Source: a virus (taxonomy: Duplodnaviria > Heunggongvirae > Uroviricota > Caudoviricetes). From it: a DNA stretch of 13,926 nucleotides. Below are positions 3,405-10,217 of this stretch, one piece after another (positions within the stretch are counted from its first letter, which is position 1; every line of letters starts with the position of its first letter). Where the stretch lies: IMG/VR virus record IMGVR_UViG_2529292830_000019; one strand, written 5' to 3'. A model generated the notes under the pieces. The model searched no databases and was not told the origin of the DNA. It saw only the letters and a list, made by a program, of their open reading frames with translations. Both the position numbers and the translations under genes were made by a program.

Positions 3405-4611
3405 CTTTTCTCCCTTTAATTTCCACAGTCTGTTTCCATGCCTGGCTGAACTCATCACCACCTTCACGCGGCGGCATACCCTCGCGTTCGCGAGCTTCGT
3501 TCGGATTCATGATCCCGCTCTTAATCCCTTTCTCATACGTGGCATAACGTTCGGTGGGTGTGGCGCGCAGTAAATCGGCTGAATCAAACTCAACCAGATA
3601 ACGGGTACCAGGTACGGGAGAAGTCACCAGCAAAGCGGCCTTGATTTGCTGTTCGAAGTTCGCCAGCCACGGGCGCATTGTCATGGTCAGAAATGCGCGG
3701 CTCGCCTCACTGAAATTGCTGTAGGTGCTGTTGCTGTATTCCTGAAGAAAAATCGGCGACACGTTGAACATCCTGGCGATGTCTTCAATGGAGAAGCGAC
3801 GGGAGGCCAGCCATTCCGCATCCTGGTTACTCATCCCCAGCTGCCTGTAATCCATGCCCCCTTCAAGGATTGGCGTTTTTCCGGCATTTTTCGCCCCCTT
3901 GTAGCGTTCCAGTGCGTCTAATGCCTGTTTACCTTTCACGCCGTCCAGCCATTCACCTGACGTGATAATCCCTGCCGCCATCATGCCATCTTTCATAATG
4001 CTGGCTCCGTGACGCTGTTGAGCAAGGCCAAGCCCCAGCGCCTCACGGCAAATCGTGACGGGGGAACGCCCCAGAAAGCCATCATCCGAGGCATAGCGGA
4101 GATGCAGAACTTCTTCCTGTAAATACGTGCGCACCGTTCCTGTACAGGGTTCGGTGATGGTATAGCGGTATTTGTGTGTGCCTGTGCGTTCCGGTACAAC
4201 ACACCCCGGCGCATAAGGATGAAGTGATTTTGGCTGCCCGTCCCGCCCCCACTCAATAACCGCATAGGCGTTACCGTTCAGCAGGCAGTGACGCATCATT
4301 GTGCGTTTAAACTGGTAAGGTGTCAGGCACGAATTAGGCTGCTCATTCAGCAGAATATCTACCGGGTGACTGTCCAGCCATTCCCGCGCCTCTCTGCCCT
4401 TATCATTGCGTACCAGATACAGGTAACACGGCATCGTGGCCACCGCCTCAGCGATGACAGAAACCGCGTTCATCACAGCAGGCAATGATTCAGCCGTCCC
4501 GGCAGAAACATATTCTCCGGATCCGGTATTTGGTACACCAGACAACGCCAGAAAATCATCAATGGACAGGTTACGCAGATCGCTTTTTTTACGACTAAAA
4601 GGCCACCACAT
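3397..4611 (-). CDS. HK97-family portal protein, about 404 aa
   Basis: Size and sequence are portal-like. I chose ATG at 4611 (MWWPFSRKK...), one nucleotide after the protease stop; the ORF-track start at 4701 would overlap the protease gene. Confidence 0.85.
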   Translation of the reverse strand: MWWPFSRKKSDLRNLSIDDFLALSGVPNTGSGEYVSAGTAESLPAVMNAVSVIAEAVATMPCYLYLVRNDKGREAREWLDSHPVDILLNEQPNSCLTPYQFKRTMMRHCLLNGNAYAVIEWGRDGQPKSLHPYAPGCVVPERTGTHKYRYTITEPCTGTVRTYLQEEVLHLRYASDDGFLGRSPVTICREALGLGLAQQRHGASIMKDGMMAAGIITSGEWLDGVKGKQALDALERYKGAKNAGKTPILEGGMDYRQLGMSNQDAEWLASRRFSIEDIARMFNVSPIFLQEYSNSTYSNFSEASRAFLTMTMRPWLANFEQQIKAALLVTSPVPGTRYLVEFDSADLLRATPTERYATYEKGIKSGIMNPNEAREREGMPPREGGDEFSQAWKQTVEIKGRKDE

Positions 4612-7447: not shown

Positions 7448-7873
7448 TTAAAACGGTATGTTATCCCCGTACGGGTCATCGTGCTGGCTTGTCTGTTGTT
7501 TTGCCCTGTTCAGTGCGTCAGTGGCCTGGCCCTGTTGACCTTTTTTGCCGCCCGGTCGCGCCGTTCGCGCACTGATTACGCTGTCTGCAATAACCTGCCA
7601 GCCCTGCCGCGTTTCCCCGTTCTGGCCTGTCCACTGGCTCACCTGCATGTTACCCGCCACGCTCACCAGTTCGCCTTTGTGGTGTTTTGCCAGTGCGTCG
7701 GCCTGTCTGCCAAACACCAGGACAGATAACCACATCGTCGCCGTTCCGTCATCTGCCTGGCTGCATGGCAGGGGAACCGCCATACTCGCCATCGCCATTT
7801 GTGTCCCCTTGCTGGTGGTCTTTAACTGCGGGTCAGCCACCAGCCGCCCGTAAGCCGCTATCTGTGCTGTCAT
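7448..7873 (-). CDS. ssb: Single-stranded DNA-binding protein (SSB), 141 aa
   Basis: OB-fold-like core (WLSVLVFGRQADALAKHHKGELVSVAGNMQVSQWTGQNGETRQGW) and an acidic C-terminal tail ending DDPYGDNIPF, matching the SSB ...DDDIPF tail. ATG overlaps the upstream stop (ATGA). Confidence 0.8.
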   Translation of the reverse strand: MTAQIAAYGRLVADPQLKTTSKGTQMAMASMAVPLPCSQADDGTATMWLSVLVFGRQADALAKHHKGELVSVAGNMQVSQWTGQNGETRQGWQVIADSVISARTARPGGKKGQQGQATDALNRAKQQTSQHDDPYGDNIPF

Positions 7874-8115
7874 GCTGTCTGTTCTCCGGTTTTAACGTTG
7901 ATGGTTGTCACCTGTTCCGCTTCGGCAATCTCCCGTTCTGTCAGTGTGGCAAAGTTTGCCGCTGCCGTGGTCATGAATGCGCTTACCAGTTCGGGATGTG
8001 CTTTTGCGTACCCTTCTCCCGCGTTGCGGTCGATGATTTTTATCGCCACCCTCAGCCAGTGTTCTGTCAAATCAAGGGTGTGAGATTGTGGTTTTTTTGC
8101 GTGCTTCGTTGTCAC
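7870..8115 (-). CDS. Hypothetical protein, 81 aa, first gene of the SSB operon
   Basis: GTG start at 8115..8113 with GAGGT 7 nt upstream. No family recognised. Confidence 0.45.
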   Translation of the reverse strand: MTTKHAKKPQSHTLDLTEHWLRVAIKIIDRNAGEGYAKAHPELVSAFMTTAAANFATLTEREIAEAEQVTTINVKTGEQTA

Positions 8116-8159
8116 AGGCTTTACCTCACAGCAATAAAATAAAATTTTTGCATTTTAAC

Positions 8160-8400
8160 CCTTCACCTGTTCACCTTTTGAGATTTTCCCTTTTTATTCA
8201 TAATGTTAAGGAGTGAACAGTTTCACAAAAACTATTCACCAACTGTTCACCACTGTTCACCCTTAAAGCTCAATAAATAATCAAAAAGGTGAACAGTGAA
8301 TAGTTTGGTGAACAGTTCACAAATAACTGTTCACCCTATAATGTACTGATATAAAAGATATTTATAACAGGGTGAACAGTGGTGAACAGTTATTCCATAA
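8160..8400. repeat. Iteron-type replication origin: about ten copies of CTGTTCACC / GGTGAACAG in both orientations in AT-rich DNA, directly 3' of the primase gene
   Basis: Forward copies at 8167, 8243, 8253 and 8327; reverse copies at 8212, 8288, 8307, 8381 and 8391; variants CTATTCACC (8232) and TGAATAG (8297). Several are 10 bp apart. The motif equals the P4 type I iteron TGTTCACC as I recall it. Confidence 0.65.
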
Positions 8401-8402
8401 GT

Positions 8403-10217
8403 TTAATTTTTGCTGTCGTCATTTGTGACCGATGCACATGATGGCATCCAGTCTTCTGAATCCTCTGTCAGTGTCACATTTGAACGCAAACCGTGCTTCG
8501 TTTTCCGTTTTATATACTCCCTGCCATATTCCGCCATTGCCCCCGGCATATCTTTACCGAAGCGCGTCAGTGTTACAGGTTTACCGAATCCGTGTGCCCT
8601 CATATATGCCAGATAGGCGTGATAAAGATACCTGCGCGGACTGAACGGAATAATTTCGGCATTACCCACTAACAGACCATCACACATTACCGACGACATG
8701 AGATAGCCACAGAAGTCCACCAGCGAATCGCCCTCGCGTTTTATCACCAGAGCTTCTTCTGATTTCTGCTGCTCATACAGCAGGCGTTTAGCTTCGTCCT
8801 GGTCAGAAAAACGAGTAAGCAGATGGCGAATCACAACCGCCAGCTCTCCTTCTATTTTTTCTGCCAGCATGGGGTCGCGCTCGTTCTCCGGTACAACCTC
8901 CGAAAAATTGAATATCACCCGACGACGTGAGATCCCCCCGCTGCGGTCACTGAATGACATGGCGTTATTGTTCACCGCCAGCACGACCGCCTGAATGCGT
9001 GTTGAGTAGGGGGCTTTATGCTTCGGGTCGATTGCCACCTTGTCACCGCCTGTAATGGCCTTAATTCCTGCGCCATCACCAGCGTAGCGGGTCATATCCG
9101 GCATGATAATCAGCGAAAAGCCAACCACTAACGCGCGTTCCCTTGCATCTTCCAGCGCCTTCATGCTTGCCGATACTGTGTTGGCCTTACCCGCCAGCAT
9201 AGTGCAAATCTCCGCCATCACGCTTTTACCACTTCCCCCTGGACCTGTTACCTCAATGAATAACTGCCAGTCGTACCGGTTCGCCAGCACCATGAATAAT
9301 GCAGCCAGCACGCGATCCGTCTTGCGGTCATTCTCTGCCACCGAGCAGCGTAACCACTTCCAGAAATTCGGCGCATGTGTTGCCAGCGTTTCCCCCTCTG
9401 CTGGTGGGCTGAAAGGTAATTCACTGGCAATTAACAACCAGTCGTTTTTGTTATGCTCCCGAAAATTACCTGTTCTGGTATCAAATACCCCGTTACTGAA
9501 TCCAATCAGGTTACGGGCTGTATTCCCCATTACAGGCAAACTTAACTTCATGGTATCGACCGCCGATTTAATGGCGTTCTGCGAATAGCTGATCTCCGCA
9601 TCAATGAAAATCTGCGCCATAGCACGCTGTAACTCTTTATCCTGAATCGGCTCCCATACAACGCCGTTGTAATGGTGAACAGTGTCAGAGTCGGCATGAA
9701 TCGCCAGTTCACCGCCATAATGTGCCAGGAGAACTTCGCCGCGCTGGCTTGCTCCCATCTGGTTAAGCGCCAGTGGTGCGGCGCTGTCTTCTGTTTTTTT
9801 CTTAACAGGAAGCTGAATCACCAGACCATCAGAAAGATTCTGGCGCTCACGGGCCAGATATTCGCGCCAGTTCTGCACCTCCTGACCGTGCATACCCTCA
9901 GGATAAAAATTTGCATCCTGTACGCCTGCCGCCGCCAGCTTCTGACCAATCGCCTTTATCATTACTGGCGCAAGATATCCGGCCCTGAATATGCGCACGG
10001 ATTTTCTGCCTTCCGGCACAATTTGCAGCTTATCCAGTTCGGATAACTGCTGCTCCCCAAGCCACACAGGAGGCTCATTATCTCCGGCCATACGCGCGTC
10101 ATGTTCCTGCCATTGTTTTGCGTGTGACCAGGCATCACTACCCGCAAAAATAATGACTTCTGTTTCTTTGTGTTTTATGCCGCGTGACTGCTGTTTTACG
10201 TTCGGTGCCAGTTTCAT
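8403..10217 (-). CDS. Primase-helicase replication initiator (P4 alpha / D5-type, SF3 helicase Walker A), 604 aa
   Basis: Walker A GPGGSGKS within a D5-like helicase region, with a primase-like N-terminal half. ATG overlaps the upstream ORF stop (ATGA); the iteron origin lies immediately downstream. Confidence 0.85.
   Translation of the reverse strand: MKLAPNVKQQSRGIKHKETEVIIFAGSDAWSHAKQWQEHDARMAGDNEPPVWLGEQQLSELDKLQIVPEGRKSVRIFRAGYLAPVMIKAIGQKLAAAGVQDANFYPEGMHGQEVQNWREYLARERQNLSDGLVIQLPVKKKTEDSAAPLALNQMGASQRGEVLLAHYGGELAIHADSDTVHHYNGVVWEPIQDKELQRAMAQIFIDAEISYSQNAIKSAVDTMKLSLPVMGNTARNLIGFSNGVFDTRTGNFREHNKNDWLLIASELPFSPPAEGETLATHAPNFWKWLRCSVAENDRKTDRVLAALFMVLANRYDWQLFIEVTGPGGSGKSVMAEICTMLAGKANTVSASMKALEDARERALVVGFSLIIMPDMTRYAGDGAGIKAITGGDKVAIDPKHKAPYSTRIQAVVLAVNNNAMSFSDRSGGISRRRVIFNFSEVVPENERDPMLAEKIEGELAVVIRHLLTRFSDQDEAKRLLYEQQKSEEALVIKREGDSLVDFCGYLMSSVMCDGLLVGNAEIIPFSPRRYLYHAYLAYMRAHGFGKPVTLTRFGKDMPGAMAEYGREYIKRKTKHGLRSNVTLTEDSEDWMPSCASVTNDDSKN

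Follow-up and report, generated by a model that had tools for sequence, protein, structure and literature searches.

Short repeats lie directly 3' of a gene annotated as a DNA primase in the window, by which we mean the whole stretch of 13,926 nucleotides that was analysed. The question raised by this locus is whether the repeats form the replication origin of the element that carries them, and to which known replicon such an origin would be related. A preliminary description had proposed a P4-type iteron origin directly 3' of the initiator gene. We consider it very probable, from comparison of sequences, that a capsid-forming satellite of the PICI type (cf-PICI type), integrated in the E. coli chromosome, has its vegetative replication origin in the intergenic region at 8116-8402. 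The core of the earlier proposal is well supported by four lines of evidence given below: the identity of the iteron, the alignment with P4 ori1 and crr, the origin-binding domain of the initiator, and conservation and covariation among relatives.

The sequence of the window matches E. coli NCCP 13717 (NZ_CP115984.1) at 100% identity. The island, about 14 kb long, interrupts yifB/comM and is flanked on both sides by parts of that gene. By RefSeq annotation and Pfam, it encodes an integrase, an HTH regulator, an Icd-like protein, a DUF4222 protein, the 'DNA primase family protein', SSB and a ProQ/FinO protein, and further the major capsid protein, prohead protease, portal, connector, HNH, TerS and TerL; these annotations revealed no tail genes in the island. 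The open reading frames (ORFs) for int, regulator, initiator, SSB, capsid, portal and terminase are intact. In this the island is like the cf-PICIs, which measure about 14-15 kb and carry int, an alpA-like regulator, rep and their own capsid, protease, portal, connector, HNH, TerS and TerL genes without tail genes; the layout has been described for EcCIEDL933 (bioRxiv 10.1101/2022.09.08.507074). Unlike P4-like satellites, it lacks sid, psu and delta and has its own capsid, portal and terminase genes. Judged by its predicted genes, the island is of the capsid-forming PICI layout and is not a P4-like satellite.

The iteron array and its dyad layout

The genes around the putative origin are all on the minus strand. 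Past the origin, the initiator gene is followed by an 81-aa ORF (7870-8115), the SSB gene (7448-7873) and a ProQ/FinO-family gene. The features of the intergenic region are as follows.

8116-8402, no strand: entire intergenic region with the putative origin, 287 bp, flanked by the initiator gene on one side and the 81-aa ORF and SSB genes on the other
8160-8261, no strand: crr-like module, mirror image of the ori1-like module; 8161-8217 aligns with both 120-bp repeats of P4 crr
8262-8287, no strand: AT-rich centre of the array, 81% AT, separating the two modules and situated on the dyad axis
8288-8389, no strand: ori1-like module, colinear with the P4 ori1 core (9310-9413 in P4) and with a P4-like ori
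8336-8370, no strand: AT-rich spacer, predicted DNA-unwinding element, 80% AT, at the same position as the AT spacer in P4 ori1
8167-8175, 8243-8251, 8253-8261 and 8327-8335, plus strand: exact iterons
8288-8296, 8307-8315, 8371-8379 and 8381-8389, minus strand: exact iterons
8212-8220 (minus) and 8232-8240 (plus): one-mismatch iterons
about 8295-8303 (minus) and about 8160-8167 (plus): degenerate iterons

With at most one mismatch allowed, CTGTTCACC had 17 matches in the window against 3.1 +/- 1.7 expected, and none of 200 shuffles reached 17. Ten of the 17 matches fall within 8167-8389, where chance would supply about 0.05 matches per 240 bp (Poisson P ~5e-20). The array consists of eight exact and two one-mismatch copies of CTGTTCACC/GGTGAACAG, plus degenerate ones. 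The ten strong iterons are balanced between the strands (five plus, five minus), and start-to-start spacings of 10-11 bp are found at 8233/8244/8254, 8296/8307 and 8371/8381. About ten repeats in both orientations, often 10 bp apart, in AT-rich DNA right after the stop codon had been described before, and this description agrees with our counts: the GC content is 32.8% in the intergenic region 8116-8402 versus 50.7% in the whole window, and the minus-strand ORF 8403-10217 has its stop codon (8403-8405) 13 nt from the end of the nearest iteron.

Chance, low-complexity sequence and a packaging site were rejected as causes of the repeats, on the enrichment statistics, the homology to P4 ori and the distance of the array from the terminase genes. 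Rfam returned no RNA family in the whole window. DnaA boxes gave 10 matches against 11.7 expected, none of them meaningful in the origin. The window has no second iteron cluster; outside the array there are only two lone exact copies of the octamer TGTTCACC. Both are inside the initiator coding sequence, at 8969-8976 (plus) and 9674-9681 (minus). About 0.4 such octamers are expected by chance in the window, and the two copies could be chance occurrences or extra binding sites.

The array is dyad-symmetric and reads [2]-44-[1 inverted]-21-[3]-34-[3]-21-[1]-43-[2]. Its ori1-like half begins with three tandem GGTGAACAG sites (8288, the degenerate one at about 8295, and 8307) and an inverted CTGTTCACC (8327-8335), continues with the 35-bp AT spacer and ends with two tandem GGTGAACAG sites (8371 and 8381). 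The crr-like half has two CTGTTCACC-type sites (the degenerate one at 8160 and 8167-8175), a 36-bp spacer, the inverted site 8212-8220 and three tandem sites at 8232, 8243 and 8253. The least stable 25-mer of the 13.9-kb window is 8343-8367 (-23.4 kcal/mol versus a mean of -34.4, sd 3.0). Because this minimum of duplex stability sits in the 35-bp spacer of the ori1-like unit, the spacer is the predicted opening site.

Comparison with the P4 replicon

The annotated P4 genome record NC_001609, with its crr, origin and 'ori type 1 repeat' features, served as reference for the P4 iteron. The annotated 'ori type 1 repeat' is TGTTCACC, identical to the octamer of the window, so the preliminary description had given the P4 alpha type I iteron correctly. 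Exact TGTTCACC occurs 11 times in P4, and 11 of 11 copies lie within crr or ori. A full-text literature search for TGTTCACC found only unrelated primer sequences. The two P4 regions are these.

4291-4590 in P4: crr, just past the alpha stop codon and its terminator
9310-9413 in P4: ori, carrying exact TGTTCACC copies

A comparison with P4 ori1 and crr had been suggested, and it showed that the two halves of the array have different P4 counterparts. Local alignment of window 8288-8389 with the P4 ori1 core gave z=16.3 against dinucleotide shuffles. Window 8161-8217 aligned with the two P4 crr repeats at z=8.7 and 8.4, non-iteron spacer included. The cross-comparisons were weak, with z=2.9 for the left half versus ori1 and 3.9 for the right half versus crr. 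By blastn, the ori1-like stretch also matched the ori of a P4-like element (H50).

The likeness to P4 extends beyond the octamer and its occurrence in both orientations. As in the P4 ori1 core, three tandem sites and one inverted site are followed by an AT spacer of about 35 bp and two tandem sites, the middle site of the triplet being degenerate in the window. The crr-like unit has a similar spacer sequence, and here too the array follows the initiator gene at its 3' side, on the same strand. The two replicons differ in arrangement. P4 keeps its ori1 at a distance of 4.7 kb from crr, and its crr, which follows a terminator, consists of a 120-bp unit in duplicate, whereas the window has a single ori1-like and a single crr-like unit, adjacent within 230 bp, inverted and without a terminator. 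The P4 type 2 repeats (CACTTAAAGY, three copies beside ori1) are at the chance level in the window, with 17 matches at two or fewer mismatches versus 18.5 expected; a single copy with one mismatch lies at 8260-8269. The outer edge of P4 crr carries a perfect DnaA-box-like TTATCCACA at 4281-4289, with no counterpart in the window origin.

The initiator and its relatives

The protein encoded next to the array belongs to the same family as P4 alpha in its C-terminal part. Its domains and the island SSB are as follows.

8403-10217, minus strand: initiator, 604 aa, with Pfam D5_N, DUF5906 (SF3 helicase P-loop) and a Pox_D5 C-terminal region
8442-8732, minus strand: C-terminal winged-helix origin-binding domain, predicted iteron reader, aa 496-592 (PDB 1KA8, E=3.3e-24)
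9810-10217, minus strand: N-terminal 136-aa domain, predicted TOPRIM-like fold, without canonical catalytic Glu/DxD and without Zn ribbon
7448-7873, minus strand: island SSB (Pfam SSB, E=2e-16), a likely replication accessory

Residues 137-599 of the initiator are 49% identical to P4 alpha 313-776 (E=6e-161), and as in alpha an SF3 helicase is joined to a winged-helix origin-binding domain. PDB 1KA8 is a C-terminal fragment of P4 alpha, which we take to be its winged-helix origin-binding domain; this fragment is reported to have such a fold and function. The origin-binding domains of the initiator and alpha share 48.5% identity.

The N-terminal part is different. The similarity to alpha begins only at alpha residue 313. 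P4 alpha has a Zn-ribbon/TOPRIM primase domain, in contrast to the 136-aa TOPRIM-like domain without catalytic residues of the window protein. Pfam detected no match on the initiator N-terminus, whereas the N-terminus of P4 alpha gave Zn_Ribbon_Prim and Toprim_3, and hhalign of the domain against the alpha primase gave a probability of 0.5%. Strand 1 is followed by the invariant motif TEVIIFAGSDAW, in which Ala takes the position of the TOPRIM catalytic Glu. The DxD after strand 3 (VRIFRAG) is absent in every family member, Arg/Phe-type residues being present instead. A MAFFT match of the domain to the EGYATA and DxD motifs of alpha was dropped, as profile-profile comparison gave it no backing; the TOPRIM relationship is supported only by the predicted fold. 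From the motif positions, the domain is probably a vestigial, inactive TOPRIM, and the RefSeq name 'DNA primase family protein' is probably wrong for the primase part. The iterons had been taken to support the primase call. This holds as far as an alpha-family initiator with helicase and origin-binding parts is concerned and fails for the primase, since the Zn ribbon and the catalytic residues are missing.

The short N-terminal domain was also found fused to RepA/AAA_25-type helicases (P0051 and P0055, 'helicase RepA family protein', PF13481), and it thus behaves as a portable module across helicase classes. At least three N-terminal types accompany one and the same helicase and origin-binding core among the 80 loci of the relative set (L009-L088): the short TOPRIM-like domain in proteins of about 600 aa; an unrelated 'MSDALFSC..WVNG' type of about 585 aa in Pectobacterium, Serratia, Rahnella and Lelliottia; and the full Zn-ribbon and TOPRIM of P4 alpha in proteins of 773-832 aa.

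These 80 loci come from Enterobacterales, Zobellella and Oceanisphaera and represent at least 12 genera. In most of them the array starts 3-100 bp past the initiator stop codon and uses TGTTCACC iterons. Some close relatives, with 71-85% core identity, use TGTCTACC, and TCTCCACC, ACTGTCCGC and CTATACAC also occur as iterons among the relatives. The dyad layout is common to short PICI-type relatives and to long relatives with Zn ribbon and TOPRIM (Xenorhabdus, Photorhabdus and Zobellella). Of the loci examined, P4 alone departs from it, having a pair of crr units behind alpha and its ori1 at a distance of 4.7 kb.

The choice of iteron covaries with a segment of the origin-binding domain. Wherever this domain has the 8-residue segment [RK][KRH][TS]K.G[ILV][RQ], the locus has at least four copies of GTTCAC (54 of 54 loci); with the 13-residue segment xTxGPDKGRxI, the loci have 8-9 copies of GTCTAC and zero GTTCAC (four of four). 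At this site the window protein has 'RKTKHGLR', and the alternative form of the segment is 'KQCTRGPDKGRTI'. In the C-terminal segment of the domain, a candidate determinant of iteron specificity, the TGTCTACC users L017, L018, L020 and L025 carry a 5-residue insertion (GPDKG) together with Cys/Thr changes. The covariation, which rests on about three to four independent switching lineages, supports the reading of iterons by the initiator.

Iterons are also better conserved than the DNA between them. In six versions of the origin (74-100% identical), columns were invariant at 74% of iteron positions versus 45% of spacer positions (Fisher P=3e-5); the degenerate iteron positions recur in relatives and the strong sites are invariant. 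Of 5426 complete E. coli genomes, 671 (12%) carry the origin region, with up to six copies per genome.

The closest functional precedent is EcCICFT073, whose pri-rep-ori segment sustains plasmid maintenance in a rep- and ori-dependent manner (PMC6092414; Fillol-Salom et al. 2018). In Gram-negative PICIs the origin is immediately 3' of rep and iteron sets flank AT-rich DNA (PMC6092414), and the window origin has the same position and arrangement. The window shares with EcCICFT073 the dyad architecture and spacings directly after the initiator gene and the neighbourhood of DUF4222, initiator, small ORF and SSB. The iteron of EcCICFT073 is TGTCTACC, whereas that of the window is TGTTCACC; the window thus has a different specificity allele, the one matching P4. 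This tested relative has only about 45% identity to the window in the helicase/origin-binding part. The initiator (8403-10217) is a mosaic when compared with EcCICFT073 Pri-Rep (L089 4493-6247): aa 1-137 are 98% identical and the rest about 45%, and the breakpoint is the domain linker. The helicase, the origin-binding domain and the origin appear to have been swapped as one cassette behind a constant N-terminal domain. In the O157:H7 island, the helicase/origin-binding part is 97-98% identical and the origin is the same.

The Gram-positive SaPIs reportedly have a comparable arrangement, in which a D5-type rep is directly followed by an AT-rich region with iteron sets on its flanks, and they have Rep-ori specificity alleles. 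They differ from the window in their unrelated iterons, their hosts and a separate or fused AEP-type primase.

Function of the region

The position of the array is ambiguous by itself because the region after alpha in P4 is crr, an auxiliary cis element and not the start site, with ori1 4.7 kb off. The array could then be only a crr-like auxiliary element, acting as an enhancer or by looping, while replication starts elsewhere in the island, and the resemblance of the left half (8161-8217) to crr would fit. This is very improbable, as the P4 ori1 core, AT spacer included, aligns colinearly with the right half (8288-8389), no second iteron cluster exists in the window, and contiguous ori1-like and crr-like units are the rule in the relatives. 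A decayed, non-functional remnant in a defective island, to which the two mismatched and two degenerate sites might point, is the most remote of the readings that we weighed. The ORFs of the island are intact from int to terminase, the degenerate positions recur in relatives with the strong sites invariant, and the region is found in 12% of complete E. coli genomes.

The repeats might also be mainly operators controlling the downstream SSB, ProQ and capsid genes, replication being secondary or absent. No terminator separates the initiator gene from the next genes on its strand, the array occupies the gap between them, a bound protein could block or modulate read-through, and a weak TAAAAT -10-like element is found about 37 nt before the GTG at 8115. 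The region had indeed been said to hold of necessity the promoter of the SSB operon. This claim found no support: in a consensus scan of 7800-8700 the gene strand showed no sigma-70-like promoter, no terminator followed the initiator gene, and the one promoter-like site (8111-8140, plus) is on the wrong strand, versus 1.5 sites expected. Read-through from upstream is the simpler reading for expression of the downstream genes, although a weak promoter is possible; it fits the unidirectional transcription reported for Gram-negative PICIs (PMC6092414). We regard a mainly regulatory role as very unlikely, since the array is homologous to a characterised origin and adjoins the gene region for a homolog of the origin-binding domain, and no DNA in the window is less stable than its AT spacer. 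A regulatory side effect would be compatible with the origin model.

Under the origin model, we infer the binding, the site of melting, the assembly of the helicase and the source of primers as follows. After induction, the 604-aa protein would bind about 11 TGTTCACC iterons through its C-terminal winged-helix domain, and the SF3 (D5-type) helicase would form from the bound protomers around the AT spacer. Two helicase rings facing in opposite directions would be in keeping with the dyad symmetry, as at the papillomavirus and SV40 origins. Melting would take place at the 35-bp, 80% AT spacer (8336-8370), followed by unwinding, and the island SSB would coat the single strands. Because the initiator has no recognisable active primase, the host probably supplies priming; one candidate is DnaG, possibly recruited through the SSB tail. 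The C-terminus of the island SSB (...DDPYGDNIPF) resembles the acidic IPF tip of E. coli SSB, a tip that recruits host replication proteins. Helper-phage-induced excision, replication and transfer have been described for EcCICFT073 and EcCIEDL933 (PMC6092414; bioRxiv 10.1101/2022.09.08.507074).

For SaPIs and Gram-negative PICIs, iterons flanking AT-rich DNA 3' of rep have been described as the normal arrangement, and the P4 iterons have long been known. What is added here is a refinement, namely a PICI/cf-PICI allele with the P4 iteron and fused ori1 and crr units, which is not stated in PMC6092414 or bioRxiv 10.1101/2022.09.08.507074. The former describes the organisation of PICIs as unique and says of the Pri-Rep proteins that they are 'different in sequence' from alpha, and the text of the latter contains neither 'iteron' nor 'ori site'. 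Since such origins were already described for P4, SaPIs and Gram-negative PICIs, the conceptual gain is modest. In practical terms, the origin of a widespread E. coli satellite family is placed on a precise 287-bp fragment and the predicted reader domain is named, which may be of use for annotation, satellite-derived vectors and induction studies. The PICI/cf-PICI and P4 replicons become linked at the DNA level, and this suggests cross-talk between co-resident satellites.

A wider proposal joins several of these points: that the PICI/cf-PICI allele is a direct homolog of the P4 replicon that has kept its iteron specificity despite about 50% protein divergence, that the compact dyad origin is the common form and the split arrangement of P4 derived, that co-resident satellites cross-fire, and that these initiators have no primase of their own, the TOPRIM-like domain being dead. 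We put it forward tentatively and find it rather doubtful that all of its parts hold together. If it were true, P4-like satellites, PICIs and cf-PICIs sharing TGTTCACC in one cell could cross-fire or compete for origins, with trans-replication or incompatibility between satellite families, and an SF3 helicase with a dead TOPRIM-like domain would need to recruit host priming.

Two minor observations concern annotation. The 81-aa ORF 7870-8115 (minus) is named 'DNA alkylation repair protein' here, and its near-identical homologs are named 'hypothetical protein'. It has no Pfam match, and its sole match is PHROG 1231, for which no function is given; the name looks unreliable. Divergent versions of the origin, with 74-76% identity, were found in classical PICI-like islands (initiator, SSB, ProQ and PerC), in a capsid-encoding island of O157:H7 and in the 16.5-kb record 'Escherichia phage vB_KppS-Ant'. 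The last (LR881103.1, 16,548 bp) was deposited as an induced prophage and carries the same initiator and origin together with capsid and portal genes; its appearance is that of a satellite of the cf-PICI type and not of a complete phage.
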